Source: Burkholderiales bacterium
GTDB taxonomy: Bacteria > Pseudomonadota > Gammaproteobacteria > Burkholderiales > SG8-39
Reading direction: 5' to 3'
DNA length: 64,000 nucleotides
Assembly (NCBI GenBank): GCA_046160305.1
Contig: JBJXGX010000305.1
Coordinates: forward strand, 17,322 to 81,321
In this document: in pieces, positions 3,187 to 20,328 of the stretch
Layout of the letters: every line of letters begins with the position of its first letter
How positions within the stretch are numbered: position 1 is the first letter of the stretch
The notes under the pieces: model-generated
What the model saw: the letters and a program-made list of their open reading frames with translations, nothing else
What the model was told of the DNA's origin: nothing
The model's database searches: none
Translations under genes and position numbers: made by a program

Positions 3187-3196
3187 CGCTTCCTCA

Positions 3197-4117: not shown

Positions 4118-5202
4118 GAGAGCGCCACGGCCGGTGCCGGCACAGGGGCGGGCTTCGGTGCGGACCTCGGCTTGAAGAGTCTGCCGCGCAGCGCCTCGCT
4201 CGCGAGAATGAACACAAAACAGAATCCCATCAGCACCTGCACGGAGGCGTCCGGCAGGCCCATGCGCCGCTGCAGCAGGCTGCCCGCGGCAAGAAATCCT
4301 CCGAAGAGAAGCGCAACCGGCACGATCGCCAGCGGCTGATGCCGTGCGACGAAACTGACCAGTATCCCGGTGTAGCCAAGGCCCGCGATCATCGAAGCAT
4401 TCGCCGAGGTGTGAACCGCCGCCACCTCGATACCGCCTGCCAATCCCGCGGCGCCGCCGGCCAGCGCGCAAGCGGTGACGATGAGACGGCTGCCGGGCAG
4501 TCCGACCAGTCGAGCCGTGCGCAGATTGCCGCCGACGACGCGCGTGGCGAATCCATGGGTCGTACCCGCCAACCATAGTGCCGCGGCGATACAAAGAACG
4601 ATCCCGAACAGAAGCCCCCAGTGCACGTCCCAAGACCCCATCGTGCCGATGCGCAGTGTCTCCGGCAACGCAAGGGTCGAGGGCTTGTTCAAGCTTGCCG
4701 GATCGCGCAGCGGCCCTTCGACGAGGTGCTTGAAGAGCGCAATCGCGATGTAGCCGAGCAGGAGGCTCGAGATCGTTTCGTTGACGCCGCGCCATTGGCG
4801 CAGCACGCCGGCCAGGGCGATCCAGGCGGCGCCCGCCAGCACGGCGACCAGTAGCACGAGCGCAGTCCCGGCCGATCCTTCCGGCATTGGCAGCATGTAA
4901 GGCAGCGCCGCGCAGGCCAAGCCGCCAAGAACCAGCGCCCCTTCGCCGCCGATCACGATGAGCCCCGCTTGTGCCGGCAGCGCGACACACAGCGCGGTGA
5001 GCATCAGCGGCGCAGCCCGCTGAAGCGTGTTCTGCAGCGAGAACGAATCGCCGAAGGCTCCACGAAAAAGCAAGAACCAGGCTTCCACCGGATCGTGTCC
5101 GCCGACCCAGACGAACAACCCGAACAGCCCAAGTGCCGCGACGATCGCGATCACGGGCAGCGCGATCGCCTCGCCGGCTTCGCGCCAGGGCATCGAACGC
5201 AT
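4114..5202 (-). CDS. ABC transporter permease (BPD_transp_2)
   Basis: APLMLTAL, IGGEG, GVNETISSLLL, GYTGILV; multiple TM segments. Confidence 0.88.
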   Translation of the reverse strand: MRSMPWREAGEAIALPVIAIVAALGLFGLFVWVGGHDPVEAWFLLFRGAFGDSFSLQNTLQRAAPLMLTALCVALPAQAGLIVIGGEGALVLGGLACAALPYMLPMPEGSAGTALVLLVAVLAGAAWIALAGVLRQWRGVNETISSLLLGYIAIALFKHLVEGPLRDPASLNKPSTLALPETLRIGTMGSWDVHWGLLFGIVLCIAAALWLAGTTHGFATRVVGGNLRTARLVGLPGSRLIVTACALAGGAAGLAGGIEVAAVHTSANASMIAGLGYTGILVSFVARHQPLAIVPVALLFGGFLAAGSLLQRRMGLPDASVQVLMGFCFVFILASEALRGRLFKPRSAPKPAPVPAPAVALS

Positions 5203-5229
5203 CGCGAGCGCGCGGTCGGACGGTGTCGT

Positions 5230-6348
5230 CTACACCTTACCGATGACGCCTTCCACCAGGTAGCTCATCGCCTCGAGCTCGACGTCGGTCTGCTTGAACG
5301 TCTTGCCCTTGGCAATGACGACCTTGCCGGTGTTGTCCTTCAACTCGCCGCCGAAAATGTCGAAGCCACCCGCCATCATCTTGGCGCGCACCGCATCGGC
5401 GTTCTTGCGTGCGGCCTCGCTCACCGCCGTGCCGTACGGCGAGGACTTGACGAACCCATCCTTCAAGCCACCGCGCACGAAGTTCGGATGTGGCTTGCCG
5501 TTGCGCGCCGCCTCGACGATCTGCGTGTAGGCGGTCACCCAGTTCCACTCCGCGCCGGTGAGATAGGCCTGCGGGGCGAGCTTGGCCTGGCTCGCGTGAT
5601 AGCCGCAGACCATCTTGCCGCGCTTGGCGGCCGTCTCGACCACGACCTTGGGTCCATCCACATGCATCGTGAATACATCGGCGCCTTGATCGGCGAGGCT
5701 GTTGGTCGCCTCGGCTTCTTTCACCGGCATCGACCAATCGCCGGTGAAGATTGCCGTGGTCGTGATTTTCGGGTCCACCGAGCGCGCGCCCATCGTGAAG
5801 GCGTTGATATTTCGGAGCACTTGGGGAATGGGCTTGGCTGCCACGAAGCCGAGCTTTTTCGATTTGCTCATGTGGCCGGCGACGACCCCGTTCAGGTACT
5901 GCGCCTCGTCGATGTAGCCGAAGAAGCTGCCTACGTTCTTCGGATGCTTGCCGTCGGTCCAGAGGCCCCCACAATGCGCGAAGCGGATCTTATCGTTCTT
6001 GGGTGCCACCGCGAGCACGTGCGGATCGAAGTAACCGAAGGAAGTCGGGAACAGCAACGCCGCGCCGTCCTGCGCGATCATGCCCTGCATCGATTTCTGT
6101 GCTGCCTGCGTCTCGGGCACGTTTTCTTCTTCGATCACTTTGATGCCGGCGACTTTCTTCATCGCCGCCGCCGCTTCCGCGTGCGCCTGGTTGTAGCCGA
6201 AATCGTCACGCGGCCCGACATAGATGAAGCCCACCGTCATGGCGCTCTGCGCGTGCAACACACGGCTCCAGCTCGACGTGGCGATGATCGTGCCGAGCGC
6301 ACTCGCGCCTTGCAGCCAGTCTCTGCGATTCCAACGATGCATAGCCAT
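5230..6348 (-). CDS. BMP-family ABC substrate-binding protein with Tat signal
   Basis: NRRDWLQ twin-arginine motif; GFIYVGPRDDFGYNQAH; AGGAGG RBS upstream. Confidence 0.9.
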   Translation of the reverse strand: MAMHRWNRRDWLQGASALGTIIATSSWSRVLHAQSAMTVGFIYVGPRDDFGYNQAHAEAAAAMKKVAGIKVIEEENVPETQAAQKSMQGMIAQDGAALLFPTSFGYFDPHVLAVAPKNDKIRFAHCGGLWTDGKHPKNVGSFFGYIDEAQYLNGVVAGHMSKSKKLGFVAAKPIPQVLRNINAFTMGARSVDPKITTTAIFTGDWSMPVKEAEATNSLADQGADVFTMHVDGPKVVVETAAKRGKMVCGYHASQAKLAPQAYLTGAEWNWVTAYTQIVEAARNGKPHPNFVRGGLKDGFVKSSPYGTAVSEAARKNADAVRAKMMAGGFDIFGGELKDNTGKVVIAKGKTFKQTDVELEAMSYLVEGVIGKV

Positions 6349-6606: not shown

Positions 6607-6635
6607 TTGACAGCGCTCCGCGGTCGGATTATCGT
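6607..6635 (+). promoter_or_regulatory. Putative sigma70 promoter of the Rieske cluster
   Basis: TTGACA (6607-6612), 17-bp spacer, TATCGT (6630-6635). Confidence 0.6.
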
Positions 6636-6672
6636 TGTTTCGTATTTGGACCAGTGTTTCATATATGGAACA
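6636..6672. promoter_or_regulatory. Tandem operator-like dyads, probably bound by the cluster's IclR
   Basis: TGTTTCGTATTTGGACCA (6636-6653) and TGTTTCATATATGGAACA (6655-6672), 15/18 identical; the second is a near-perfect palindrome. Both lie directly after the -10 box. Confidence 0.55.
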
Positions 6673-6873
6673 GAATGTCTCGGCAGCGGTATCGTCCGCG
6701 GCGATTCGGCGGCGGTTCTGTCGAGCGTCCGCTGCACCAGGCATGCGTCCTCATTCCTCCCGGCGAATGGACGCGCCCCGGCCGAGAGAGTGGTGATGGG
6801 GTACCCGGTGCGAAGCGAAGGCAGGTAGGTCTTTGTACAGATCGGATCCCGGCGTGGATCGAAAGGAGTGAAG

Positions 6874-7260
6874 ATGGCTGAGCGAGGCATGACCCGGGCT
6901 CACATGCCCACGGCGAACACCGAGGGCGTCGTTCCCGACTTCAACCCTTATCTCGAGGCGTACGCGCATCCGCGCCGCAACACCCATGCCGGCAGCGGAC
7001 AGATCTTTGGGCGCAGCGAGCGCGATCTGATCGTGTGGCAGACGCGTCCGGCGGTACCAAACGACTACGAGCTCGGACTCGCCTCGACGCTCGAGCAGAT
7101 TTTCGCCCAGCGCATCTATGAGCTGCCCGACATCGTCGCGGCGCTCAATCGCGAAGGCGTCCGCACGCCAGGCGATGCGGCCTGGACAGAGCAGAACTTC
7201 CCGGAGGCATTCCGTGTGCTGGGCCGGCTCGCTTTCGGCGAGGGGCACGATCATGGCTGA
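6874..7260 (+). CDS. Small recombinase-like helix-turn-helix domain protein
   Basis: AAGGAG RBS; C-terminal ELPDIVAALNREGVRTPGDAAWTEQNF resembles the recombinase DNA-binding HTH; no catalytic domain; overlaps the Rieske start. Confidence 0.7.
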   Translation: MAERGMTRAHMPTANTEGVVPDFNPYLEAYAHPRRNTHAGSGQIFGRSERDLIVWQTRPAVPNDYELGLASTLEQIFAQRIYELPDIVAALNREGVRTPGDAAWTEQNFPEAFRVLGRLAFGEGHDHG

Positions 7261-8302
7261 CCCTCAAGCTGTTGAGCGACTCGTCAATCGCGGGCTTCGC
7301 AATCAGTGGTATCCGGTGCTCCCAAGCTGGGCGCTCGCGGGCGCTCCGGTGGGCATCACGCGCTTGTCGGAAAACCTTGTGCTGTGGCGCGACGACGATG
7401 GCACGGCGCACGCGATCGAGGATCGTTGCCCGCATCGTGGCGCACGCCTGTCGCTTGGCTGGAATCTTGGCGATCGCCTTGCCTGCTGGTATCACGGCAT
7501 CGAGGTGGATGGCACCGGCACGGTGCGCAAAGTCCCCGCGATAAGTCCCTGCCTCCTCGAGGGCAAGCAGGCCGTCAAGCGCTATCCGATCCAGGAAGCC
7601 CGAGGCGGTCTCTTTGTCTATTTCGGCGATTCCCTGCACGCCGAACCGTGCCCCCTCGAGCTTCCCGAAGAGCTCACGAGTGACGAGTACGGCGCGATCC
7701 TTTGCTTCGCGAAGTGGCGGTGCAACTACCGCTACGCGATCGATAACGTCATGGATCCGATGCATGGGGCCTACCTGCATGCGTTGTCGCATTCGATGGC
7801 CGAGGGCGACAAGAGCGCGAGCATGCAAGTGAAGAAGACGGCGACCGGCTTTTCGTATGAAAAAACGACACAACGTGATCTGAACTTCGATTGGGTCGAA
7901 TTCGGCGAATCGGGTGCGACATGGCTGCGATTGGCCATCCCTTATCGCCCGAGCGCGGGGCCCGGCGGCAACTTCGGCATCGTCGGCTTCGTCACGCCGG
8001 TCGACGAGGACAACTGCTGCGTGTTCTTCTGGCGGAACCGGAAATGCACGGGTTGGGTACGCGACGTCTGGCAATTCATGTACCGCACCAAGCTGGAAGG
8101 CCTGCACTGGACCGTGCTCGAGCAGGATCGCTTCGTCCTCGAGCACATGGCACCTGATGCCCGTTCGCGCGAGTGCCTCTATCAGCACGACACCGGTTTG
8201 GCGCGCGTGCGTCGCATTCTTCAGAAAGCGGCTGAAGCGCAGCTCGAAGCACTGCCGGCGGAGCAGCCCGCCGAAACTTCCACGGCCCGACCGGCCGCCT
8301 GA
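7253..8302 (+). CDS. Rieske non-heme iron oxygenase alpha subunit (VanA/TsaM-like)
   Basis: CPHRG...CWYHG Rieske motif; DNVMDPMHGAYLH mononuclear iron motif; EQD. Confidence 0.92.
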   Translation: MADPQAVERLVNRGLRNQWYPVLPSWALAGAPVGITRLSENLVLWRDDDGTAHAIEDRCPHRGARLSLGWNLGDRLACWYHGIEVDGTGTVRKVPAISPCLLEGKQAVKRYPIQEARGGLFVYFGDSLHAEPCPLELPEELTSDEYGAILCFAKWRCNYRYAIDNVMDPMHGAYLHALSHSMAEGDKSASMQVKKTATGFSYEKTTQRDLNFDWVEFGESGATWLRLAIPYRPSAGPGGNFGIVGFVTPVDEDNCCVFFWRNRKCTGWVRDVWQFMYRTKLEGLHWTVLEQDRFVLEHMAPDARSRECLYQHDTGLARVRRILQKAAEAQLEALPAEQPAETSTARPAA

Positions 8303-8335
8303 CGACTTCGAGCACCCAAACGGAGAGGACCCGTC

Positions 8336-8881
8336 ATGACACATCCCGAAGCTGCGACCGGCGCGAAGACTCGACTCGGTGCGTTGCTGGAATCGCGCGT
8401 AGCGCGCTTTTCGACGCGCAAATACGATTGGGACGCGCTCAAGTTCCAAGCCGACTTCGACCCGAAGTATCGGCGCGCGCAGATGCGCTATGTCGGTACC
8501 GGGGGCACCGGCGTCAAAGCGGACGCGAGTGTCGTACCGGCCGAGCACTTCACCTTCTCCACCATGATTCTGCCCGCCGGCGCCGAGGGTGCGCTCCATG
8601 TCCACAACGATGTGGAGGAAGTGTTCTTCGTTTTGCGCGGCAAGGTGAAGCTGATTGCCGAGCTGGATGGCGAGCGCTGGGAGACTATTGTCGGCGAGCG
8701 CGACTTGATCTCCTGGCCGCCGGGGGTCTATCGCGGCGAGATCAATGTCGGTGAGGAGGATGCGCTGATGTGCGTGATGCTCGGTTCAGCCAAGCCGGTG
8801 ACACCGACGTATCCGCCGGATCATCCGCTCAGCGCGATCAAGCGCGTAGGAATCTGCGCGGCGGACCGCGCAGATTCCTGA
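8336..8881 (+). CDS. Cupin domain protein
   Basis: GALHVHNDVEEVFFVLRG and DLISWPPGVYRG cupin motifs. Confidence 0.85.
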   Translation: MTHPEAATGAKTRLGALLESRVARFSTRKYDWDALKFQADFDPKYRRAQMRYVGTGGTGVKADASVVPAEHFTFSTMILPAGAEGALHVHNDVEEVFFVLRGKVKLIAELDGERWETIVGERDLISWPPGVYRGEINVGEEDALMCVMLGSAKPVTPTYPPDHPLSAIKRVGICAADRADS

Positions 8882-8936
8882 TGGAAGACGCTACGTGCCT
8901 TTATTTCCGCGAATGGGCTAAACAACAACCGCGACC

Positions 8937-9677
8937 ATGACGCAATCGCTCCAAGGCAAACGCATCCTGATCACCGGCGGTGCACGCGGGATGGGTCGCG
9001 CATTCGCCGAAGCGGCGATCAGCGCCGGCGCACGTGTAGTGATCGCCGATGTGCTCGAAGAGGTCGGGCGTGAGACTGCGCAAGCGATTGGCGCCACGTT
9101 CGTACCCGTCGATCTCGCTGTTCCCGCTTCGATCGAAGCCTGCGCGGCGCAAGCGGCCGCGACGCTTGGCGGCCTCGACGGCCTGGTCAACAACGGTGCG
9201 ATCACCAGTTCAGGCGGCGTGTCGCTCGAGTCGCTCGATATTGACGTCTGGGACCGCGTCATGACCGTCAATGTTCGCGGCACCTGGCTCATGACGCGGG
9301 CCGTGCTTCCCCATCTGCGCGCCGCCGGTCATGGACGCGTGGTGAACATCGCCTCCGACACCGCGTTGTGGGGTGCGGAGCGGCTGATGGCCTATGTCGC
9401 GAGCAAGGGTGCGCTCATCGCGATGACACGCTCGATGGCGCGCGAGCTTGGCGAAGACGCGATCACCGTCAACGCCATCGCGCCGGGGCTCACCTTGGTC
9501 GAGGCCACGGAATATGTTCCCGCGGAGCGGCATCGGCGCTATGTCGAGGGGCGTGCGATCAAGCGCGCGCAGGCACCCGACGATGTGTGCGGTGCGGTGA
9601 TGTTCCTGCTCTCCGATGGTGCATCGTTCGTGACCGGGCAACTGCTCGCCGTCAACGGCGGCTTCACGATGCATTGA
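8937..9677 (+). CDS. SDR family oxidoreductase
   Basis: TGGARGMG, NNGA, YVASK. Confidence 0.92.
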   Translation: MTQSLQGKRILITGGARGMGRAFAEAAISAGARVVIADVLEEVGRETAQAIGATFVPVDLAVPASIEACAAQAAATLGGLDGLVNNGAITSSGGVSLESLDIDVWDRVMTVNVRGTWLMTRAVLPHLRAAGHGRVVNIASDTALWGAERLMAYVASKGALIAMTRSMARELGEDAITVNAIAPGLTLVEATEYVPAERHRRYVEGRAIKRAQAPDDVCGAVMFLLSDGASFVTGQLLAVNGGFTMH

Positions 9678-9703
9678 TCGAACGACATCCTGCAGCGCGG
9701 CTC

Positions 9704-10492
9704 ATGAAAGAAACCGACAATCCCTACAACGTCCCGGGCCTCGAGCGCGGGATGCAGATCCTCATGTTGTTCGATCGCACGCGACCTGCGATCGGCGCGC
9801 CCGAGTTCGCACAGGCCCTGGGTATTCCACGCACCACGGTGTTTCGTTTGCTCCAGACGCTCCAGCATCTCAAATTGATCGTGGCCACCGAGAGCGGCGC
9901 CTATCGGCTCGGTCCGGCCGTGCTGCGGCTTGGGTTCGAGTACATCGCATCGATCGACCTGACCGAGCTGGCGCGGCCCATCGTGGAACGGCTGCGCGAT
10001 GCGACCGGGCTGCCCGCGCAACTGGTTATTCGCGATGATCGCGAGGTGGTTGTGGTGTTGCGCTTTGCGGGGACATCGGCGTTCGAGAGCAGCGTGAACG
10101 TCGGCACCCGAATGCCCGCGCACGCGACCATTCTCGGGCGCATGTTGCTGGCGGATCTCAACGCGGCGGAACTTCGCCGGCTCTACCCCGAGCGTGAGCT
10201 CAAGCGCTATTCGGCGCACACTCCGAAGAACGTCGCTGCCTTATCGAAGCTGCTCGAAGCCGATCGCGCACGGGGGTTCGCCGTGAGTGAGTCGTTTTAC
10301 GAGCGCGGTATTTCGGCGGTTGCCGCGCCGGTGCGGGACGATACCGGACGCATCGTCGCGGCGATCAGCGTCACCACGCAGCGCGAGTCGATTCCGGCGA
10401 GTGAGCGCACCGTGCTCATCAAGCAGGTCGTCACCGCGGCGGGCGAGCTGTCCGGTCAACTCAGCTATCGCGGCAGCCGTACCGCCGCCTGA
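9704..10492 (+). CDS. IclR family transcriptional regulator
   Basis: N-terminal HTH (GLERGMQIL...IPRTTVFRLL); GTRMPAHATILG; ISAVAAPVRD. Confidence 0.92.
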   Translation: MKETDNPYNVPGLERGMQILMLFDRTRPAIGAPEFAQALGIPRTTVFRLLQTLQHLKLIVATESGAYRLGPAVLRLGFEYIASIDLTELARPIVERLRDATGLPAQLVIRDDREVVVVLRFAGTSAFESSVNVGTRMPAHATILGRMLLADLNAAELRRLYPERELKRYSAHTPKNVAALSKLLEADRARGFAVSESFYERGISAVAAPVRDDTGRIVAAISVTTQRESIPASERTVLIKQVVTAAGELSGQLSYRGSRTAA

Positions 10493-10611
10493 CCGGAACC
10501 GACTCATGCCTTTCACCATTGACTTCCGTGGACCCATGGCAAACCTGTTTCCCGCGCTGTCCTCCTGCGCTCCCGGTAGCTTCATTCATTTCTTTGAAGG
10601 ACATCGTCCCC

Positions 10612-12300
10612 ATGGCTGATCGTATCGAGCGCATTGCCGTCGGCGAACTCATTGCACGGTTCCTGGAAGAGTGCGGCGCGACGGCCGCGTTCGGCGTCAT
10701 TTCGATCCACAACATGCCGATTCTGGATGCGTTCGGCCGGCGCGCCGAGCAGGCGAAAGCGAACGGCCGTCCCGCGCCGATCCGCTTCGTGCCGGCGCGA
10801 AGCGAACCCGGGGCGGTGAACATGGCCGATGCCTATGCACGCGTCGCGGGCCGGATCGGTGTCGCCGTCACCAGTACCGGCACCGCGGCGGGCAACGCGT
10901 GCGGCGCGATGGTCGAGGCGCTCAGCGCCGGCACACCGCTCCTGCATCTGACCGGGCAGATCGAGGTGCCGTACCTTGACCAGGATCTCGCCTACATTCA
11001 CGAAGCGCCCGCGCAACTCGATATGCTGAGGGCGGTTTCCAAAGCGGCCTTTCGCGTCCGGAGCGCCGACACCGCGCTTGGCACCTTGCGCGAGGCGGTG
11101 CGGATTGCGCTCACACCACCGCGCGGTCCGGTGAGTATCGAGATTCCGATCGATATTCAGTTGGCTGAAATCCCCATGCCTGCGTCGATTGCACCGGCGG
11201 CAATCGGCGTGGCCCAACCCAACGCGGCCGAGCTTGACTTGCTGGCCGAGCGACTCGCCGGCGCCAAGAGGCCGCTGCTCTGGCTGGGCGGTGGCGCGCG
11301 GCATGCCGCACGCGCGGTCAGACGCCTGCTCGATCTTGGATTCGGCGCGGTGACGAGCGTACAAGGCCGCGGCGTCATTGCCGAGGACGACCTCCGTTCC
11401 CTCGGTGCCTTCAATCTCTATGCGCCGGTCGAGCAGTTCTACGCGACCTGCGATGCCATGCTCGTCGTCGGCTCCCGGTTCCGCTCGAACGAGACGCTCA
11501 AGTACAAGCTGAAGCTGCCGCGCCCGTTGTTGCGTATCGACGTTGATCCGCAACAGCAGGGACGTTGCTATCCGGACGATTTGTTTATCGTGGCCGATAG
11601 CGTGCTCGCCCTCGACGGCCTTGCGGATCGGCTCACCGGCCGCATGAAGGTCGATCCTTCGTTCGCGCGCGATCTCGCCGCGGCACGGGCGGCCGCGGAG
11701 CGCGTCGTTATCGATGGGCTGGGTCCTTACCATGCGTTGCTCGCTGCGTTGCAACGCGCGGCGGGGCGCGACTTCATCTGGGTGCGGGACGTCACGGTGT
11801 CGAACAGCACCTGGGGCAATCGGAGCCTTAATATTTTCGGCCCACACGACGGCGTGCACGCGCTCGGGGGGGGCATCGGTCAAGGCGTGCAGATGGCCAT
11901 CGGTGCAGCCATCGCGGCCGGTGCGCGCAAGACGTTGTGCCTGGTGGGCGACGGCGGGCTGCAAGTCAATATCGGCGAGCTGGCCACCATGGTTCAGGAG
12001 AACGCGAACGTCGTCGTGATCGTGATGAACGATCGTGGCTATGGTGTGATCCGCAACATCCAGGATGCGCAATACGGCGGGCGCCGATATTTCGCCGATC
12101 TGCATACGCCTGATTTCGGCCTGCACGCGCAATCGATCGGCTTGCCGTATCGTCGGGTCGGCGATCTGGCAACGATCGCGACAACGCTTACCGAAGCGAT
12201 GGCGCGGACTGGACCGAACCTGATCGAAATCGATATGAATCAGATCGGCCCGTTCGCGAAGCAGTTCGCCGGCCCGCCGGTCAAGGAAGCTCGACCATGA
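10612..12300 (+). CDS. Thiamine pyrophosphate-dependent enzyme (acetolactate synthase-like fold)
   Basis: ARSEPGAVNMADAYAR with the catalytic Glu; GDGG...MNDRGYG ThDP-binding motif. Confidence 0.9.
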   Translation: MADRIERIAVGELIARFLEECGATAAFGVISIHNMPILDAFGRRAEQAKANGRPAPIRFVPARSEPGAVNMADAYARVAGRIGVAVTSTGTAAGNACGAMVEALSAGTPLLHLTGQIEVPYLDQDLAYIHEAPAQLDMLRAVSKAAFRVRSADTALGTLREAVRIALTPPRGPVSIEIPIDIQLAEIPMPASIAPAAIGVAQPNAAELDLLAERLAGAKRPLLWLGGGARHAARAVRRLLDLGFGAVTSVQGRGVIAEDDLRSLGAFNLYAPVEQFYATCDAMLVVGSRFRSNETLKYKLKLPRPLLRIDVDPQQQGRCYPDDLFIVADSVLALDGLADRLTGRMKVDPSFARDLAAARAAAERVVIDGLGPYHALLAALQRAAGRDFIWVRDVTVSNSTWGNRSLNIFGPHDGVHALGGGIGQGVQMAIGAAIAAGARKTLCLVGDGGLQVNIGELATMVQENANVVVIVMNDRGYGVIRNIQDAQYGGRRYFADLHTPDFGLHAQSIGLPYRRVGDLATIATTLTEAMARTGPNLIEIDMNQIGPFAKQFAGPPVKEARP

Positions 12301-12366
12301 GCGTCTTGATCCCCTGGACGATTCGCGCGTATCGACTCGGCCGCCCACACGATCCGCGGAGGAGAC

Positions 12367-14763
12367 ATGGCCAACCCTGGCGTAGCAATGGCGAATAACC
12401 CGACCGGCTCCTCCTTCATCGGCAGGCCGATGCGGCGCGTCGAGGACGATCGCCTGTTGCGCGGACACGGGCGCTTTCTCGCGGACTTGCAGGTGCCCGG
12501 TGCGTTGGTGGCGCTATTCGTTCGCAGCCCGCATGCCCACGCGCGCATCGGCCGGGTCGATGCATCGGGCGCGCGCGCGATGCCGGGCATCGTCGCGATC
12601 TTCACCGCGGCGGATGTTGCCGCGCGCACCGAGCCGATCTGCATCGCGGGCGAGGTCCACACACCGGAGCGGCTGCTGCGCGAGCTGAAGCCGATGGACC
12701 GCATCCATCCGATACCGCTCTTTCCTGCCGAACGCGTGACCTACGTCGGGCAACCCGTCGCGATGATCGTGGCCGAGAACCGGAACGCGGCGCTCGATGC
12801 GGCCGATCACATCAATATCGAATACCAGCCGCTTCCTGCTGTGCTCGATCCGGTCGCTGCGCTTACCGTCGATGCGCCGCTGGTCGAGCCGAGCTGGCAA
12901 AGCAATCTCGCGCTATCGGTCGCCACCGGTAAAGGCACACCGGAGGCGATTTTCGCGACCGCGCCGGTCGTGGTCGAGGAAGAAATCACCACGCATCGCT
13001 ATGCGGCCTCGCCGCTTGAGCCGCGCGGTATCCTCGCGACGGTCGAGCCCTTCGGCGGCAAGCTCATCGTGTGGGCAAGTACGCAGACCCCGCATGTGCT
13101 GCAGAACATTCTGGCCGGCTCGTTGCGTCAGTCGCCCGATAGTATCCGCGTGGTCGCCTGCGATGTCGGTGGTGGTTTTGGTCAGAAGGGCATCCAGTAT
13201 GTCGAGGACGTCCTGGTCACGTTCGCCGCCCGCGAGCTTGGCCGATCCGTGCGATGGGTCGAAGAGCGGACCGAAAATCTGGTCGCCGCGGCGCATGCCC
13301 GCGACCAGATCCATCGCATCGCCATCGCCGCGACCCAGGACGGAATGATCCTCGGCGTGCGCGACGACGTGCTGGTCAACTTCGGGGCCTTCAATGTCAT
13401 CGGTCTGGTCGTGCCGTACAACACGCTCTCGCATCTGCTTGGGGCGTATCACGTGCCGCACGCGCATATTTCGGTGAAGGGCGTCGTCACCCACACCTGC
13501 TTTACGACGCCTTATCGCGGCGCCGGACGCCCCGAGGCGGTGTTCGCGATGGAGCGCATCATCGATCGGCTCGCCGCGCGTCTGAACATGGAACCCGCCG
13601 ACGTGCGGGCGCGCAATCTCGTCCGGCCGGACGCGATGCCCTATGACACCGGGCTCTTGTATCGCGACGGCAATCCGCAGATCTACGATTCGGGCAACTT
13701 CCCCGAGCTGCTGCGACGCGCGCGGGCCATCGTCGCCTTGGACGCCTTTCGGGCGCAACAGACCGCATCGGTCCCGCCGGGCGGCATGCTGCGCGGCGTG
13801 GGCTTCGCGCTTTATGTGGAAGGTTCCGGAATGGGGCCGTTCGAAGGCGCGGTCGTCCACGTGCTGTCCTCGGGACGCGTTCAAGTGGCAACCGGTGCCT
13901 GCAGCCAAGGGCAGGGGCATCAGACGGCGTATGCGCAGATCACCGCTGACGCGCTTGGGGTCCCATTCGATTCGGTGGAGGTGATCGGTGGCGACACATC
14001 GACCATCGCGTTCGGCATCGGCACGATCGCCAGCCGCAGCACCGTGACCGCGGGAAATGCGATCAACCAGGCCGCGATCGCGGTGCGGGAGCGGGCGCTT
14101 GCGATCGGCTCGGAACTTTTGGAGGCCGCGGCGGCTGACCTGGAGCTGGTGGACGGAAACATCCGCATCAAGGGCATCGCCGAGCGCGCAATTCCGATCG
14201 CGCATATCGCACAGGCTGCGGCGCGCGCCGCGTTGCGACAAGGCGCGCCGGGCGATGGGCTGCTCGCGGAGACCGCGTACTTCAGCCCGCCGACCGTCAC
14301 CTATGCGAGCGCCGCGCACGCGGCCGTCGTCGCGGTCGATCCGGATACCGGCGTCGTGACCTTGGAGCGCTACATCGTGGTCCACGACTGCGGCCGCGTC
14401 GTGAATCCGCTGCTCGCCGACGGACAAGTCATCGGCGGGGTGGTGCAGGGCATCGGCGGCATCCTGCGCGAAGAGATGATCTACGATGCGAGCGGCCAAC
14501 CGCTGTCGGGCACACTGCAAGACTATGCGCTGCCGATCGCCACCGACATTCCCGATATTGAGCTCGATCATATCGAGAGCCTGTCGACCCGCAATCCGCT
14601 TGGCGTGAAAGGCCTCGGCGAAGGCGGCGCGATCGGGCCGCCCGCTGCGATTGCCAACGCGGTCGAAGACGCGTTGAAGTCGCTTGGCGTCGTTGTGCGC
14701 CGCGGGCCGCTCACGGCGCAGCGCGTACGCGAGCTGCTGCGCGCTGCGACCCATTCGAACTGA
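12367..14763 (+). CDS. Xanthine dehydrogenase family molybdopterin-binding large subunit (CoxL form II-like)
   Basis: RRVEDDRLLRG, VGGGFG, PYRGAGRPE, GQGHQT, KGLGEGG. Confidence 0.9.
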   Translation: MANPGVAMANNPTGSSFIGRPMRRVEDDRLLRGHGRFLADLQVPGALVALFVRSPHAHARIGRVDASGARAMPGIVAIFTAADVAARTEPICIAGEVHTPERLLRELKPMDRIHPIPLFPAERVTYVGQPVAMIVAENRNAALDAADHINIEYQPLPAVLDPVAALTVDAPLVEPSWQSNLALSVATGKGTPEAIFATAPVVVEEEITTHRYAASPLEPRGILATVEPFGGKLIVWASTQTPHVLQNILAGSLRQSPDSIRVVACDVGGGFGQKGIQYVEDVLVTFAARELGRSVRWVEERTENLVAAAHARDQIHRIAIAATQDGMILGVRDDVLVNFGAFNVIGLVVPYNTLSHLLGAYHVPHAHISVKGVVTHTCFTTPYRGAGRPEAVFAMERIIDRLAARLNMEPADVRARNLVRPDAMPYDTGLLYRDGNPQIYDSGNFPELLRRARAIVALDAFRAQQTASVPPGGMLRGVGFALYVEGSGMGPFEGAVVHVLSSGRVQVATGACSQGQGHQTAYAQITADALGVPFDSVEVIGGDTSTIAFGIGTIASRSTVTAGNAINQAAIAVRERALAIGSELLEAAAADLELVDGNIRIKGIAERAIPIAHIAQAAARAALRQGAPGDGLLAETAYFSPPTVTYASAAHAAVVAVDPDTGVVTLERYIVVHDCGRVVNPLLADGQVIGGVVQGIGGILREEMIYDASGQPLSGTLQDYALPIATDIPDIELDHIESLSTRNPLGVKGLGEGGAIGPPAAIANAVEDALKSLGVVVRRGPLTAQRVRELLRAATHSN

Positions 14764-14805
14764 TCCACCCTCACGATTCGTATCACGCACACACCCGGAG
14801 GACCC

Positions 14806-15795
14806 ATGAACCACACCTTTAGGCAACGTTCGACCTTGTTGGTGGGCGCGCTGCTCGGCGCCGCGCTCATGACCAGTGCTCTCGCCCAGTCGTTCCCATC
14901 GAAGCCGGTGCGGATCATCGTGTCGTATCCGCCGGGCGGTCCGGTCGATGCGCTCGCCCGGCCGCTTGCCGATGGCCTGCAGAAACTTTGGAACGGCAAC
15001 CCAGTGTTGGTCGAGAACCGGCCGGGCGCGAACGCCATCATCGGCACCGACTATGTTGCCAAGCAACCGGGCGATGGCCACACCTTGCTGCTTGCGAACG
15101 ATCCGTCCCTCTCGTCCAATCAGTACCTCTACAGCAAGCTTCCCTACGACCCGGTCAAGGATTTCGTGCCGGTCGCAGGGGTGGCCTCGACGACCTTGAT
15201 CCTGCTCGTGCCGCCCGGCCGGTCCTACGCGACATTCCAGCAACTCGTGGCCGGCGCGAAGGACAAACCCGGCACCTTGAGCTACGGCAGCATCGGCCCG
15301 GGCAGCGTCACGCATCTCGACGCCGAAGCGATGGCGAGCGCAGCCGGCGCCAAGCTCGTGCACGTCCCGTACAAGGGCACGGGCGAAGTCGTACCGGCGT
15401 TGCTCGCGGGGCAGATCGACATGGCGCTCTCGGCGATCGGCCCATCGCTTGGTCACATTCGCTCGGGCAAGCTGCGCGCGCTTGCGATCGCCAGCGGTCA
15501 ACGCAATCCGCTCCTGCCCGATGTGCCGACATTCAACGAGGCCGGCCTTGCGAACTTCGAGGCACGCTCGTGGTTCGCGCTTGCCGCGCCGACCGGCACG
15601 CCGCGGGCCGTGGTCGACAAGATTGCCGCCGATGTACGCAAGATCGTCGATGCCGCCGAGTACCGCGACAAGTACATCGCGGGCATGGGCCTTGACCCGC
15701 TGCCGCTTGGCCCCGACGCGTTCGCCAAATATCTCGACGCGGATCGGACGAAGTACGCTGAACGGGTGAAGAATGCCAACGTGCGGCTCGACTGA
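14806..15795 (+). CDS. Bug/TctC tripartite tricarboxylate transporter substrate-binding protein
   Basis: Signal peptide; PPGGPVD, ENRPGA, HVPYKG, PDVPT. Confidence 0.92.
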   Translation: MNHTFRQRSTLLVGALLGAALMTSALAQSFPSKPVRIIVSYPPGGPVDALARPLADGLQKLWNGNPVLVENRPGANAIIGTDYVAKQPGDGHTLLLANDPSLSSNQYLYSKLPYDPVKDFVPVAGVASTTLILLVPPGRSYATFQQLVAGAKDKPGTLSYGSIGPGSVTHLDAEAMASAAGAKLVHVPYKGTGEVVPALLAGQIDMALSAIGPSLGHIRSGKLRALAIASGQRNPLLPDVPTFNEAGLANFEARSWFALAAPTGTPRAVVDKIAADVRKIVDAAEYRDKYIAGMGLDPLPLGPDAFAKYLDADRTKYAERVKNANVRLD

Positions 15796-15829
15796 GGCGG
15801 GTCGCCGTGCCGCGTCATCGAACACCCCG

Positions 15830-16840
15830 ATGAGAATCGACATGCCAAGGATCGATATGCGAAGAATCGCGGTTGTGCAACGGCTTGCCGCGGTCGCTTT
15901 CGCTGCCGCCTGCGCCCCGGCTGGCGCCCAGGACTATCCGAGCAAGCCCGTGCGGATGATCCATCCGTATGTGGCCGGTGGCCCGGCGGAGCTGATCACG
16001 CGCACGGTAAGTGAGCGCATGGCGAAGGTGCTTGGGCAACCGCTCGTCGTAGAGTCCCGTCCCGGGGCCGCCGGGAGCATCGGGGCGGAACTCGTGGCAC
16101 GCGCGGCACCCGATGGCTACACGTTGCTCGTCTCGGTGAACTTTACGCTGGCGGCCAACCCGCACCTCTATCCGAACCTGCCGTTCGATCCGCTGAAGGA
16201 CTTCGCGCCGATCATTGCTCTGGCCGGCTACGACAGTGCGCTCATCATGCATCCGTCGATCCCCGCTAGCAATGTGCAGGCGTTGATCGCGCACCTGAAA
16301 GCGAATCCGGGCAAATTGAATTTCGCCTCGGCCGGCAAGGGCAGTCCGGGACATGTGCTGGGCGAGCTGTTCAAGCTAAAAACCGGGGTAGACCTCGTCC
16401 ACATCCCGTACAAAGGGAACGCGCCGGCGGTCCAGAGCGTCGTCGCCGGCGAATCGGCGATCATGTTCACGCCGACCACGGTTGCCACCCCGCTCGCCAA
16501 GGCGGGGCGCCTCCGTTTGCTTGCGGTGTACAACACCGAGCGCAATCCGGACTTCCCCGACGTGCCGACGCTCGAGAGCGAAGGCATCACCGGGTTCGAG
16601 CAGAAGGATCTGCCCGCCTGGTACGGTTGGCTCGCGCCGGCGGGCACACCGCAACCGATTATCGCGAAGCTCAATGCCGAGGCGAATCGAGCGCTGCGCG
16701 AGAAAGACATCGCCGATCTCCTGCAGGCGCGGGGCTTCATCCCGTTTGGCGGCACACCGGAGCAGTTCGGTGATCTGATCAAACGCTCCTATGCATCGTG
16801 GGGAAAGGTGATCCGCGATACCGGGATCAATGGCGAGTGA
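15830..16840 (+). CDS. Bug/TctC substrate-binding protein
   Basis: YPSKPVR, ESRPGA, PDGYTL, HIPYKG. The start could be 15830, 15842 or 15857. Confidence 0.9.
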   Translation: MRIDMPRIDMRRIAVVQRLAAVAFAAACAPAGAQDYPSKPVRMIHPYVAGGPAELITRTVSERMAKVLGQPLVVESRPGAAGSIGAELVARAAPDGYTLLVSVNFTLAANPHLYPNLPFDPLKDFAPIIALAGYDSALIMHPSIPASNVQALIAHLKANPGKLNFASAGKGSPGHVLGELFKLKTGVDLVHIPYKGNAPAVQSVVAGESAIMFTPTTVATPLAKAGRLRLLAVYNTERNPDFPDVPTLESEGITGFEQKDLPAWYGWLAPAGTPQPIIAKLNAEANRALREKDIADLLQARGFIPFGGTPEQFGDLIKRSYASWGKVIRDTGINGE

Positions 16841-17008
16841 TCAATCGTCGCATCGTCACCGCCCGAATGGCCCTGGATGTCGGTCTTACTGTTTGGCGCG
16901 TTCGCCCTTATGAAAGCCCGTAGCGCACGTAGCGTCGGCCATCAGGAATCTGCGCGGTCCGCCGCGCAGATTCCTAGTGCGCAGATTCACTCCCCGGAGG
17001 ATTCAATC

Positions 17009-17986
17009 ATGCATGCCGTTCTTCGTTTCACGCGGATCATTGTCATGGCAGCGCCGCTCGCCATCGCTCCGGCCATCGTATCGGCCCAACAGGACTATCC
17101 GGCCAAGCCCATCCGCGTCATCGTGCCGTTTCCGGCGGGCGGCTCGGCGGATCTCGTCGCCCGCACCGTCGGGCAGAAATTCAACGACAACACCAAGCAG
17201 CCGTTCATCGTGGAGAACCGCGCCGGTGCCGACACGATCATCGCGATGGATATGGTGAAGAACGCCCCCGCCGACGGCTACACGGTTGGCTATGCGATCG
17301 GCTCCGCGCTCACGATGAATCCGACCTTGTACACCAAGCTTCCCTACGATCCGGTCAAGGACTATGTGCCGGTGATGGTGATCGCCAACGTGCCGCTCGC
17401 GCTCGTCGTGCATCCTTCAATCCCCGCCAACAACGTTCAGGAGCTGGCCGCGCTCATCAAAGCGAAGCCGGGCGAGATCTTCTACGGGCAGGCGAACATC
17501 GTGGCGAAGATCGCGACCGAGGCGTTCTCGATGGCCGCCGGCGGCAAGATGACGGAAATCGCCTACAAGGGCAGCACGCCGAATGTGCAGGCGCTGTTGG
17601 TTGGCGAGGTGAAGGTGTCGATCGAGCCGGTTGCCACGGTACTGCCGCACGTCCAGGCGGGCAAGCTACGCGCGCTTGCGGTGACCGATAGCCGGCGTTC
17701 TGCCGCCTTTCCAGACTTGCCAACGATCGCGGAGGCCGGCATTTCGGGCTATGCGTTCAACAATTGGCACGCGATCATCGTCCCCGCCGGTACACCGAAA
17801 GACATCGTCACCCGGCTGCACGCGGAGATCACGAAGGCGGCGCGTCATCCGGACGTCGCGGCGAAGGTGCAACCGCTTGGTGTGGAGATTGTCGCCGGCA
17901 CGCCCGACGAGCTGCAAAAGCGCGTTGCTACCGAACGGGAGCACTGGGCCAAACAGATCAAGGCGATGGGAATTCGGCTCGACTGA
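17009..17986 (+). CDS. Bug/TctC substrate-binding protein
   Basis: GGAGG RBS; YPAKPIRVIVPFPAGGSAD, ENRAGA, PDLPT. Confidence 0.92.
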   Translation: MHAVLRFTRIIVMAAPLAIAPAIVSAQQDYPAKPIRVIVPFPAGGSADLVARTVGQKFNDNTKQPFIVENRAGADTIIAMDMVKNAPADGYTVGYAIGSALTMNPTLYTKLPYDPVKDYVPVMVIANVPLALVVHPSIPANNVQELAALIKAKPGEIFYGQANIVAKIATEAFSMAAGGKMTEIAYKGSTPNVQALLVGEVKVSIEPVATVLPHVQAGKLRALAVTDSRRSAAFPDLPTIAEAGISGYAFNNWHAIIVPAGTPKDIVTRLHAEITKAARHPDVAAKVQPLGVEIVAGTPDELQKRVATEREHWAKQIKAMGIRLD

Positions 17987-18045: not shown

Positions 18046-18591
18046 TTATGCGGCGAGCGGCGTAGGATCATCGGCCGGCGGGTCGATCTTGAAGGTGCCG
18101 GCCGTGATGCACGTCATCGAAAAACTGCCCACGGTCGCGACGAGCGCTACCATGTCTTCCACGCCCATGACTTTCTCGGCGGCGGCGTAGGATTCGTCGC
18201 CCAGCCCTTTGTTGGCGAGGATGTCGCGTGCGGTGGTGAAACAGATGCGCTCGCGTGCGTTGGGCAGGTCCGGAGCCTTGCGTGCATTGATGGCATCTAT
18301 GATCGACTGCTCGACGCCGACGGCGAGTGATCCGCGCACCTGCGCGAACCATGGATACCGGGCATTCCAGTGCCGCGCGACGGTGATGTTCACGATCTGC
18401 TGTTCGCGCTTGGACAGCGGTCCGGAACCGATGCAAGTGCGCATGTTTTGGGCCGCCTCGAAAACTTTTGGCAGGCGGATGTAGGCGTAGTACGGGCCAC
18501 CGACGATGCCGCTCGTTGCCTTGGCTGCGTCATAGACGCGTCCCTGTTCGGCGTTCATCTCGGTGCGGTCCAGAATCTTGATGCGTGCCAT
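18046..18591 (-). CDS. Carboxymuconolactone decarboxylase/AhpD-like protein
   Basis: GGPY, LSKREQQIVNITVARHW, MVALVATVG pattern; GAGGAG RBS. Confidence 0.7.
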   Translation of the reverse strand: MARIKILDRTEMNAEQGRVYDAAKATSGIVGGPYYAYIRLPKVFEAAQNMRTCIGSGPLSKREQQIVNITVARHWNARYPWFAQVRGSLAVGVEQSIIDAINARKAPDLPNARERICFTTARDILANKGLGDESYAAAEKVMGVEDMVALVATVGSFSMTCITAGTFKIDPPADDPTPLAA

Positions 18592-18788
18592 GTGTGGTCT
18601 CCTCGGGATTGGATGTGGGCGCAAGGGTACCAGTGCTGTCCGGATCGTGCGGGCCGCGAATCCGGCTCACCTGGCGTATCGTTGCGCCGTGCGCTCGCGA
18701 TATCCCACCGAGTGCCACCGCCGCGTCGACTGCTCCCGACTTGGGCAGAACGCGTAAATCGTGATCCACCTATCAGGAAGGAGACATC

Positions 18789-19217
18789 ATGAAGCCGAAG
18801 ACCGACGAAGAATATGTGCATCTCAATTCGCTGGCTTGGAAGGCATTCCCCGACGCATTCTCAGGGGGCGGCATTCGATGGAAACTGCTCCATGTATCGC
18901 CCGAGCAGGGTGCCTGGACCGCGATCTTCGATTGCCCGAAGGGCTCATCGTTCGCACCGCACGTCCATGCGGGACCGGGCGAGTACTTCTTGACCAAGGG
19001 CAGAATGGATGTGCGCGGCGGCAAGGCGGCCGGCGGTGATACGGCCGTTGCACCGGGTTACGGCTTCGAGTCGTCCGGCGCGCGCCACGACAAGACCTAC
19101 TTCCCCGAGGACAGCGAGTTCTATATGACGTTCCTCGGGCCGCTCACATTCATCAAACCGGACGGCTCGCCGATCGCCGTGATCGGTTGGGCCGAGGCAC
19201 AGGGCGCCTGGGGTTAA
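18789..19217 (+). CDS. dke1: Acetylacetone-cleaving diketone dioxygenase (Dke1-like cupin)
   Basis: WTAIFDCPKGSSFAPHVHAGPGEYFLTKG, GFESSGARH, FYMTFLGPL, IGWAEAQGAW closely match the recalled Acinetobacter Dke1 sequence, including the 3-His iron site. Confidence 0.85.
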   Translation: MKPKTDEEYVHLNSLAWKAFPDAFSGGGIRWKLLHVSPEQGAWTAIFDCPKGSSFAPHVHAGPGEYFLTKGRMDVRGGKAAGGDTAVAPGYGFESSGARHDKTYFPEDSEFYMTFLGPLTFIKPDGSPIAVIGWAEAQGAWG

Positions 19218-19228
19218 GGGGCGACGTG

Positions 19229-19262
19229 GCGCGAGGCCGCGTGAATCTTGCGGGCCTCGCGC
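19229..19262 (+). terminator. GC-rich hairpin after dke1 (possible terminator or mRNA stabiliser)
   Basis: GCGCGAGGCCGC...GCGGGCCTCGCGC; no clear U tract. Confidence 0.35.
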
Positions 19263-19347
19263 GCGGCAGGTTGAGGTGTCTGCAGCAATTCAACAAACGG
19301 CGGTTCGTTCAACGCAATTTTGCTCGCCATCGGGCGGGAGAGGGGAT

Positions 19348-20328
19348 ATGAAGCATTTGGTACGCATGATGCGAATGATGGGAATGGGCGGCGGTATCGC
19401 CTTCGCCATGCTCGCGGGTCCGTTGCTCGCACAGGAATGGCCGGTCCGTCCGGTGCGGGTGATCGTCAATGTCGCACCGGGTGGTGTCGCCGATATCGTG
19501 GCGCGCCTGCTTGCGCCGGCGCTCGGTGAATCGTTGCGCCAGCCCTTTGTCGTCGAGAACCGCGCGGGGGGCGACGGTCTGATCGGCATAGAGGTTGTTG
19601 CCCGGGCTGATCCGGACGGCTACACGATCTGCATGTCCCCCGGCAGCTCGATCGTGATCACGCCGCATCTGGCGGCGCGCAAGGACCTTGATCCGCTCGA
19701 AGTGTTGAGTCCGATCGCACCCTCCGTAAAGAGCACCCAGTATCTGGTCGTGCATCCCTCGAGCCCCGCGAAGTCCCTTGAAGAATTCATGGCGCTCGCG
19801 AAGAAGTCGACCCGCATGAACTACGGTTCGGCAGGCACCGGCACCGGCCTGCACATTTCCGCCGAGCTCTTTCGCCGCGAAGTCGGGTTCGAGGCTGCCC
19901 ACATTCCCTACAAGGGCGCGGGACCCGCGTTGAATGACCTGCTGGGCGCTCAGTTTGATTTCATGTTCGACCCGGGTTCGGGTGTCGGCGCGATCAAAGG
20001 CGGGAAGCTCCGGCTGCTCGCGGTGACCGGTACGCAGCGCCATCCGGATTACCCTGACACGCCCACCTTCGATGAGCGCGGCATCCGATCGGTGGATGGC
20101 GGCACCTACTTTGGCTTCTATGCGACCAAGGGAACGCCGGTTGCCATCGTCCAGCGCCTGAATGCCGAGATTGCCCGCGCCGTACAGTTGCCCGAGTCGC
20201 GCAAGCGCTTCGACACCATGGGCGCGCAGATCGGCGTGATGAGTGCGGCAGAGTTCGGTACCTATGTGCGTGTCGAAAGCGAACGATACGCAAAGCTCAT
20301 CCGCGAGTTCGGCATCCGGAAGGATTGA
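19348..20328 (+). CDS. Bug/TctC substrate-binding protein
   Basis: APGGVAD, ENRAGG, PDGYT, HIPYKGAGPA. Confidence 0.92.
   Translation: MKHLVRMMRMMGMGGGIAFAMLAGPLLAQEWPVRPVRVIVNVAPGGVADIVARLLAPALGESLRQPFVVENRAGGDGLIGIEVVARADPDGYTICMSPGSSIVITPHLAARKDLDPLEVLSPIAPSVKSTQYLVVHPSSPAKSLEEFMALAKKSTRMNYGSAGTGTGLHISAELFRREVGFEAAHIPYKGAGPALNDLLGAQFDFMFDPGSGVGAIKGGKLRLLAVTGTQRHPDYPDTPTFDERGIRSVDGGTYFGFYATKGTPVAIVQRLNAEIARAVQLPESRKRFDTMGAQIGVMSAAEFGTYVRVESERYAKLIREFGIRKD

Follow-up and report, generated by a model that had tools for sequence, protein, structure and literature searches.

Whether ten co-oriented genes of catabolic type constitute one pathway, and for which substrate, is the question raised by positions 6,874 to 17,986 of a 64,000-nucleotide stretch of a Burkholderiales bacterium genome (G000:C305:17322-81321, on the 89-kb contig C305), referred to here as the window. 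The genes (Table 1) encode a small HTH_62 protein, a Rieske oxygenase, a cupin, a short-chain dehydrogenase/reductase (SDR), an IclR regulator, a thiamine diphosphate (ThDP) enzyme, the large subunit of a molybdenum hydroxylase (MoL) and three periplasmic Bug receptors. Open reading frames (ORFs), followed by Pfam and NCBIfam profile matches, bear out the families named in an earlier sequence-only reading, which had taken the ten genes for one self-contained pathway. In that last respect the comparison with related loci leads elsewhere: only six of the ten genes form a conserved core, and the account we favour, as a fairly probable one, is that the region derives, in trimmed and lineage-specific form, from a widespread catabolic operon, itself uncharacterised, that acts on an aromatic or heteroaromatic carboxylic acid. 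Taken alone, the locus falls short of a complete pathway and is a partial or peripheral module.

With each species represented by one genome, a scan yielded 570 confirmed relatives of the Rieske protein, and the best 80 of these 570 loci served for comparison, orthologs being counted by tblastn of the window proteins against them. Recurring around the Rieske gene are those for the HTH_62 protein (77 loci), the cupin, the SDR and IclR (75 each) and the ThDP enzyme (70); misses of core genes mostly reflect short contigs. The genome-neighbourhood analysis suggested by the sequence-only reading has in this way returned a six-gene core in most of the 80 loci. In most of these loci the HTH_62 gene immediately precedes the Rieske gene, and the SDR orthologs, 55–79% identical, stand beside the latter in all 75 loci matched. 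The conserved core, six of the ten genes, comprises the Rieske, cupin, SDR, IclR, ThDP and HTH_62 genes and is undescribed but widespread.

Among its hosts are many soil- and plant-associated Burkholderiaceae and other Proteobacteria: Burkholderia, Paraburkholderia (including chromosome 2 of the model degrader P. xenovorans LB400), Caballeronia, Glaciimonas, Trinickia, Reyranella and alphaproteobacterial metagenome-assembled genomes (MAGs). The closest named relatives of the window Rieske protein are from Burkholderiales MAGs, and its relatives at 62–94% identity all bear generic names. The ThDP enzyme is the sole member of PRK07064 above cut-off in its own genome. None of the operon members reaches a substrate-specific NCBIfam model; all matches are to generic or PRK names.

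The LB400 cluster (locus L042) illustrates what surrounds the core elsewhere. It begins with a divergent porin gene, followed by genes for the HTH_62 protein, the Rieske oxygenase, the SDR, the cupin, an alpha/beta-hydrolase and IclR, and continues with a second SDR (PRK07062, 473 bits), the ThDP enzyme, an aspartate-dehydrogenase-family protein (PRK13303.1-1, 541 bits; AspDH-like below) and an aldehyde dehydrogenase (ALDH). The cluster closes with a two-domain VOC/extradiol-dioxygenase-like protein, which scores only 68 bits against HpaD, and a ferredoxin reductase of the Pyr_redox_2 family. In near relatives of the window there are additionally a Rieske-type ferredoxin and, upstream, an ATP-binding cassette (ABC) importer of NitT/TauT type. 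The most reasonable class of substrate is that of aromatic or heteroaromatic acids, because full operons hold the extradiol-dioxygenase-like gene, the hydrolase, the ferredoxin and the reductase; the (hetero)aromatic class proposed earlier is upheld on the same grounds, and the substrate is probably an aromatic or N-heteroaromatic carboxylate. Also upheld is the earlier statement that the set matches no characterised pathway: NCBIfam names are generic or PRK, the relatives in the PDB are distant, and no characterised operon with this enzyme set was found in the main texts of the literature searched.

The window copy is much shorter. By tblastn it contains no hydrolase, second SDR, AspDH-like gene, ALDH, VOC/extradiol dioxygenase, reductase, ferredoxin, ABC importer or porin. 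The best matches anywhere in the bin are at 40–44% identity for the VOC dioxygenase (Glyox), 33–35% for the reductase, 43% for ALDH and 40% over 75 residues for the ferredoxin, whereas true orthologs of these genes in related loci are mostly 60–90% identical. A close ortholog of the VOC dioxygenase is found in none of the four genomes of the genus; the family-level relative G027 has one at 75%. Retained in the window is the cupin, which resembles some ring-cleaving dioxygenases.

On another contig of the same bin, C379, is a second, complementary partial copy of the operon (G000:C379:21800-28400; locus L090, 7837-14394, minus strand). It consists of genes for an HTH_62 protein, an ABC ATPase, a 346-residue binding protein with no Pfam match, a permease, a Rieske oxygenase and a cupin (62% and 74% identical to those of the window), an alpha/beta-hydrolase and an AspDH-like protein; SDR, IclR and ThDP genes and the operator described below are absent from it. 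A divergent tautomerase gene of the 4-oxalocrotonate tautomerase family is also present in this copy.

In a FastTree phylogeny of 83 Rieske sequences, the window protein groups with those of L002–L011, G027 and Reyranella (clade A, support 100), and the C379 protein groups with G015 beside the Burkholderiaceae (clade B). At other loci, Rieske genes of either clade belong to full operons. The clade B copy is found in all four genomes of the genus, clade A additionally in the window genome and in the same-genus genome G001. Within clade A, the operon of the alphaproteobacterial isolate Reyranella sp. CPCC 100927 (L008) is nested among betaproteobacterial MAG sequences, a placement that hints at horizontal transfer of the whole operon.

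The small protein at the head of the operon, of family PF20552 (HTH_62), had earlier been listed simply as HTH; its distribution is not that of an ordinary regulator. The window genome holds two PF20552 genes, each at the head of one Rieske cluster. Seven of 151 genomes evenly sampled from the order have a match, six of them above cut-off, and 14 control genomes have none. All six of the strong matches (two from the window genome and four from the order sample) lie inside this operon, and each of the four foreign genes adjoins the Rieske ortholog; one weak match (33 bits) falls outside the operon, and a further match below cut-off is found in genome G132. Eleven columns are invariant in 29 sequences. 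In the predicted structure, with a mean pLDDT (predicted local distance difference test) of 68, a three-helix bundle at the C terminus is confident and the N terminus is disordered; Foldseek found nothing in the PDB resembling this model at E ≤ 0.001, so that the label ‘recombinase-like HTH’ is neither confirmed nor replaced. The HTH_62 protein is not a typical regulator and is tied to this oxygenase, for which it may be a subunit, an assembly factor or a co-regulator.

A second element that travels with the operon is a palindrome upstream of it. A scan of the 80 loci (1.54 Mb) with the idealised palindrome TGTTCCATATATGGAACA, allowing up to three mismatches, found 87 sites in 61 loci, and 83 of these sites are upstream of the gene that opens the operon (HTH_62 or ferredoxin) and no more than 800 bp from it, at a median distance of 269 bp; five shuffles gave no site. 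Conservation of the palindrome upstream of orthologous operons shows that the operator is real and belongs to this operon family, and the tandem operator of the window is the presumed binding site of the cluster's IclR protein. The 7.9-Mb window genome has two sites only, this one and one at C291:16380 (three mismatches, inside a TctA gene); the scan found no second regulon member there, and the C379 cluster has no site. The single promoter and operator previously placed ahead of the ten genes have fared unequally, the operator being conserved and in tandem, the promoter-like site not being significant by count. That site lies within the 525-bp divergent intergenic region and is plausible because it is placed directly ahead of the operator.

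The arrangement of the palindrome varies between loci. Many Burkholderia loci (L015, L018 and L022 among them) have, between their porin and HTH_62 genes, a pair of palindromes spaced by about 285 bp, and in L013 and L052 an additional palindrome precedes the ABC importer genes, which form a separate unit there.

Downstream of the six core genes are MoL and the Bug receptors, members of families that are greatly expanded in this genome. There are 61 MoCoBD_1 hits and 32 Fer2_2 hits, none of the latter on C305, so about half of the large subunits appear to lack a dedicated small subunit. Candidates for TctC-type receptors number 396 (150 scored, all with E < 1e-65); TctA has nine hits in the genome and none on C305, and TctB was not searched for. 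With Mo large subunits and Bug genes so numerous, adjacency alone means little. The four genes could therefore be unrelated neighbours that came to lie beside the core through this family expansion, an explanation that we consider unlikely but that has to be weighed against the distribution of the orthologs.

For this, MoL orthologs were sought in 60 relatives and, with L006 and L003 added, nine loci were examined. Orthologs at 66–92% identity occur in seven genomes among the 60, and the next-best matches reach at most 47%. In six of the nine loci (G001, G015, G027, G023, L006 and L003) the ortholog comes immediately after the operon's ThDP or ALDH gene. The G001 order, ThDP-MoL-Bug1-Bug2-Bug3-CMD-Cupin_7-Bug4, is that of the window, the G001 contig ending inside the ThDP gene; in G015 the ortholog belongs to a full operon of clade B, and in L003 it is placed together with Bug1 between the ALDH and the VOC-dioxygenase (Glyox) and reductase genes. 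Bug1 orthologs (76–92%) adjoin the MoL ortholog in five loci (G001, G023, L006, L003 and G003). It is thus a single orthogroup out of some 60 paralogs that recurs at this position, in both Rieske clades and, in L003, inside the operon, a pattern which argues against chance neighbourhood; although the genomes are kin, the finding of MoL in operons of clade A and clade B alike speaks for a functional connection.

Other parts of the distribution favour unrelated neighbours. MoL orthologs lie away from the operon in G012, G003 and G008, and most clade A loci have no Mo subunit within 10 kb (L002, L004, L005, L007, L008, L009 and L011). Across the 80 Rieske loci, full-length MoL is found in one (L006), a 37% match at the edge of L055 being a paralogue, and the Bug genes occur in few near relatives only. 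Among the loci searched, Bug2 has an ortholog (85%) only in G001, and Bug3 has one there at 93% and looser matches in L004 (74%) and L007 (71%), 7–9 kb downstream of their Rieske genes. The co-conservation suggested earlier as a check consequently holds for MoL and Bug1 at the level of the family; Bug2 and Bug3 say little. MoL and Bug1 are recruits of this bacterial family, and Bug2 is confined to the genus as far as searched. In L003 (L003:15261-18815) the MoL ortholog is found as two overlapping tblastn pieces and one long ORF bears both MoCoBD_1 and TctC, which points to a frameshift or to a mistake in the assembly of that MAG.

Compared with G001, the ratio of nonsynonymous to synonymous substitutions (dN/dS) is 0.135 for the ThDP gene, 0.117 for MoL, 0.120 for Bug1, 0.129 for Bug2 and 0.077 for Bug3, and these values indicate that the arrangement is maintained by selection in this genus. 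MoL itself is an orphan large subunit: no gene for a CoxS-like small subunit was found in the nine MoL loci (7–20 kb examined) or on C305, although the control locus was detected (the FAD, or flavin adenine dinucleotide, medium subunit was not searched for). Its closest solved relatives, at 440–466 bits, are the large subunits CoxL, that of 6-hydroxypseudooxynicotine dehydrogenase (KdhL) and that of quinoline 2-oxidoreductase (QorL), and it carries the motifs GGGFG and, near the C terminus, GEGG. Aerobic CO dehydrogenase of form I, whose CoxL loop has a Cu-binding cysteine, was considered and rejected: the corresponding loop of MoL is PYRGAGR, with no such cysteine, and the NCBIfam CO dehydrogenase models score below cut-off (706 against 950 and 523 against 991).

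Purifying selection on all five genes tested would also be expected of the self-contained, single-promoter pathway for a substituted (hetero)aromatic compound proposed for all ten genes, as would the run from ThDP to Bug3 in G001. The genes are co-oriented behind one operator and closely spaced, the HTH_62 stop overlapping the Rieske start (ATGGCTGA) and the remaining gaps measuring from 26 to about 170 bp. Terminator-like hairpins number 8 (8.4 in shuffles), every one inside a gene and none intergenic. In a single biofilter-metagenome study, four DNA runs have short contigs that span the junctions IclR-ThDP, ThDP-MoL, MoL-Bug1, Bug1-Bug2 and Bug2-Bug3, and a search for RNA runs covering the stretch found none; joints with sides of 20–23 letters in those contigs were set aside because they fall in Bug paralog sequence. 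A pathway of this kind is nevertheless improbable. Missing from the set are the ferredoxin and reductase on which a Rieske oxygenase depends, an extradiol-dioxygenase-like gene and a Mo small subunit; the ten-gene set is seen in this genus only, the conserved part being the six-gene core; and the IclR-ThDP gap of 119 bp and the Bug2-Bug3 gap of about 170 bp could accommodate internal promoters. Just as improbable is a decaying remnant of the full operon with no present function, for although seven or more genes of the full operon and the redox partners are missing, all ten ORFs are intact with high third-position GC, the catalytic motifs are conserved, dN/dS is 0.08–0.14 for the five genes tested and the operator is retained.

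Several points weigh against the derivative-operon account that we prefer. The bin G000 (7.9 Mb in 407 contigs) is 95% complete with 8.6% contamination, so genes that seem missing could be unassembled and C379 could derive from another organism. If ferredoxin, reductase and an ortholog of the extradiol-dioxygenase-like protein are truly absent, the locus may not work as proposed, and we know of no way in which a large subunit lacking its small and medium subunits would pass electrons on. Some adjacency is expected by chance in a genome with 61 Mo hits and 396 Bug candidates, and the related genomes are kin, so that six of nine loci do not amount to six independent events. Between positions 6200 and 19400, one sigma-70-like site was found and 2.3 were expected from shuffles. 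Finally, the roles given below to the cupin, the SDR, the ThDP enzyme and the Mo subunit are candidate roles drawn only from family chemistry.

Table 1. Features of the catabolic gene cluster, in window coordinates
Feature	Position	Strand	Description
Promoter-like site, sigma-70-like	6607-6635	+	TTGACA-17-TATCGT, 10/12 matches, ~240 bp before first gene
Tandem operator	6636-6673	.	Two 19-nt units, TGTTTCGTATTTGGACCAG + TGTTTCATATATGGAACAG; second is the palindrome TGTTYC-N6-GGAACA
HTH_62 small protein, first gene	6874-7260	+	PF20552, 75 bits; 128 aa
Rieske oxygenase, alpha-only	7253-8302	+	Rieske + VanA_C; 349 aa; clade A of its family
Cupin, metal-binding	8336-8881	+	Cupin_2; 181 aa
SDR	8937-9677	+	Short-chain dehydrogenase/reductase, 246 aa; no NCBIfam model above cut-off
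IclR regulator	9704-10492	+	IclR family; nearest NCBIfam model PcaR/PcaU/PobR, 182 bits, below cut-off 284.75
ThDP enzyme	10612-12300	+	NCBIfam PRK07064, 857.9 bits (cut-off 495); 562 aa
Mo-hydroxylase large subunit (MoL), CoxL/Qor/Kdh type	12367-14763	+	Three domains: hammerhead, MoCoBD_1, MoCoBD_2; 798 aa
Bug1, periplasmic receptor	14806-15795	+	TctC family
Bug2, periplasmic receptor	15773-16840 (ORF); start probably 15830-15857, before signal peptide	+	TctC family
Bug3, periplasmic receptor	16877-17986 (ORF); start probably 17009	+	TctC family

The three Bug genes score 219–248 bits as TctC receptors. The genes on either flank are unrelated to the cluster. Upstream, on the divergent flank (2143-6348, minus strand), are genes for a Bmp/PnrA-type binding protein, two permeases and a CN-hydrolase, and the operator lies in the intergenic region common to both sides; Bmp/CN-hydrolase genes are beside the operon in none of the 80 related loci. 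Downstream are a minus-strand gene (18046-18624) with no Pfam match, which from its sequence we take to be carboxymuconolactone decarboxylase (CMD)-like, then a gene of the Cupin_7 family, a further Bug gene (Bug4) and genes for a two-component system. Because the CMD-like, Cupin_7 and Bug4 genes (18046-20328) follow Bug3 in identical order in G001, at 77–97% identity, the conserved block runs past 17986, the end reported for the cluster.

The Rieske ligands C59-x-H61 and C78-x-x-H81 and a His-rich iron site (the D164/H171/H176 region) are invariant in 32 sequences; the nearest solved structures are a putative phthalate 4,5-dioxygenase subunit alpha, CarAa and DdmC, with only the Rieske half aligned (E of about 1e-22 to 1e-21). 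In the cupin, H88, H90, E94, E95, R133 and N137 are invariant in 31 sequences. Many cupins carry the last metal-binding His where this one has Arg133, and the invariant Arg in its place suggests a carboxylate-bearing substrate. The cupin barrel is modelled with confidence, and Foldseek retrieves generic cupins only (Ni-quercetinase, MncA and 5-nitrosalicylate dioxygenase); phmmer against the PDB gave only marginal quercetinase matches, and the ESM Atlas gave generic names. Direct reading finds TGxxxGxG and YxxxK in the SDR and GDG...N in the ThDP enzyme, whose nearest solved structures are BbmA and acetolactate synthases, at an E value of only 1e-40.

From these assignments a sequence of events can be proposed for the derivative operon. 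Bound at the tandem operator, IclR would keep the operon repressed for as long as the regulator carries neither the substrate nor an intermediate. The Bug receptors would pass a carboxylate to a TctAB membrane unit encoded elsewhere, and the Rieske oxygenase, with the HTH_62 protein, would hydroxylate the ring using electrons from partners likewise encoded elsewhere. The SDR would re-aromatise or oxidise the Rieske product. The cupin, as an Fe(II)-type dioxygenase or an isomerase, would convert an intermediate that bears a carboxylate, in keeping with its invariant Arg133, and the ThDP enzyme would decarboxylate a 2-oxo-acid (or alpha-imino-acid-like) group. With iron-sulfur and flavin subunits supplied in trans, the Mo subunit may then oxidise the resulting aldehyde, replacing the lost ALDH; alternatively, it may hydroxylate a carbon adjacent to a ring nitrogen.

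Assigning a substrate would fill a gap in annotated catabolism, possibly that of the old gene-less kynurenate route. The operon has several unusual features: strong PF20552 matches only with this oxygenase, a ThDP enzyme and an AspDH-like dehydrogenase in an operon of aromatic type, and a Mo large subunit conserved inside the operon with no gene for an iron-sulfur subunit nearby (no search was made for flavin subunit genes). The conserved operator offers a direct handle for effector screening. The window copy matters mainly as a natural deletion variant, showing which genes stay together after loss of the rest.

Of known systems, the closest is the LB400-type operon of Burkholderia, Paraburkholderia and Caballeronia (12–15 genes), in which the HTH_62, Rieske, SDR, cupin, IclR and ThDP genes are syntenic with those of the window, 36–76% identical and preceded by the same operator palindrome. 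The window differs in having no hydrolase, second SDR, AspDH-like gene, ALDH, extradiol-dioxygenase-like gene, reductase or porin, in placing the cupin before the SDR and in adding the Mo large subunit and three Bug receptors. The names available for the LB400-type operon in NCBI are those of the models PRK07062 (SDR), PRK07064 (ThDP) and PRK13303 (aspartate dehydrogenase) only, and the literature searched yielded no mention of PF20552, HTH_62 or PRK07064. Pseudomonas aeruginosa PAO1 presumably has a similar cluster around PA3504-PA3514, but no paper in the literature searched names even two of PA3505, PA3506, PA3507, PA3509 and PA3511.

The class III oxygenases of CarAa type, and VanA and DdmC, share with the window an alpha-only oxygenase of Rieske and VanA_C domains, and the carbazole 1,9a-dioxygenase type, in which CarAa is served by a Rieske ferredoxin and a reductase, resembles the full operons, which encode a Rieske-type ferredoxin and a Pyr_redox_2 reductase. 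The similarity is mostly that of the Rieske domain, however, and the window has no ferredoxin or reductase; to our knowledge, a dedicated HTH_62 partner gene is not part of the CarAa, VanA or DdmC systems. The iph and tph clusters of Comamonas, for isophthalate and terephthalate, comprise an oxygenase, a diol dehydrogenase, a Bug-type receptor and an IclR regulator. Compared by gene content, they unite in one cluster, as the window does, an alpha-type Rieske oxygenase and a dehydrogenase with an IclR regulator and a receptor of the TctC family; unlike the window, they are not known to include a ThDP enzyme, cupin, HTH_62 protein or Mo subunit.

The classical kynurenate (‘quinoline’) pathway of pseudomonads employs an oxygenase with its reductase, a dihydrodiol dehydrogenase and a 7,8-dihydroxykynurenate extradiol dioxygenase, and is reported to involve side-chain shortening and glutamate formation. 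In the full operon, the order of oxygenase, diol-dehydrogenase-like SDR and extradiol-type dioxygenase fits the logic of this pathway, and its pair of 2-oxo-acid decarboxylase and ALDH, together with the amino-acid-dehydrogenase-like gene, could explain the side-chain shortening and the glutamate formation. No gene assignment for kynurenate or quinaldate degradation was found in the literature searched. At the window locus the oxygenase and SDR are present, and an extradiol-dioxygenase ortholog and a reductase were not found in the genus; since the extradiol-dioxygenase ortholog was not found there, this copy could probably not run the kynurenate pathway as written.

A more specific proposal, which we regard as doubtful, is that the operon encodes a pathway, so far without assigned genes, for kynurenate or another bicyclic N-heteroaromatic 2-carboxylate, that PF20552 is a new and obligatory partner of the alpha-only Rieske protein (a subunit or assembly factor), and that the orphan MoL and a dedicated Bug receptor were recruited in this bacterial family to widen entry. 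Hydroxylation of quinaldate to kynurenate is an activity known from enzymology of the 1990s, and by one route MoL would catalyse this step; by another it would hydroxylate the carbon freed by ThDP-dependent decarboxylation of the heterocycle, as in the lumichrome pathway. Were this proposal true, the genus of the window would hold a cut-down version handling part of the route. Acinetobacter baumannii grows on kynurenic acid, according to a passage of a review, and the part consulted of a review of kynurenic acid refers to tracer work of 1961 only. An Acinetobacter ESGC paper was discarded as a candidate, as it deals with kynurenine and KynU, not with this operon.

For the succession of ThDP and Mo enzymes suggested for the window, the lumichrome (riboflavin) operon of Nocardioides simplex offers a chemical precedent. 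In the part of that report consulted, a heteroaromatic 2-carboxylate undergoes ThDP-dependent decarboxylation and the freed carbon is then hydroxylated by an enzyme of the xanthine-oxidase family, the operon further encoding a Rieske dioxygenase and an extradiol dioxygenase (PMC12746152). Subunit architecture, as described there, rules out homology of the two operons: the lumichrome ThDP enzyme is split (into the 20-kDa LumK and the 23-kDa LumL), whereas that of the window is a single 562-residue chain; its Mo enzyme LumJ is a single 140-kDa chain holding all domains, whereas the window has an orphan large subunit; and its Rieske oxygenase has alpha and beta subunits (LumC and LumD), whereas that of the window is alpha-only (PMC12746152). 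The likeness between the two systems is one of logic, not of homologous layout.

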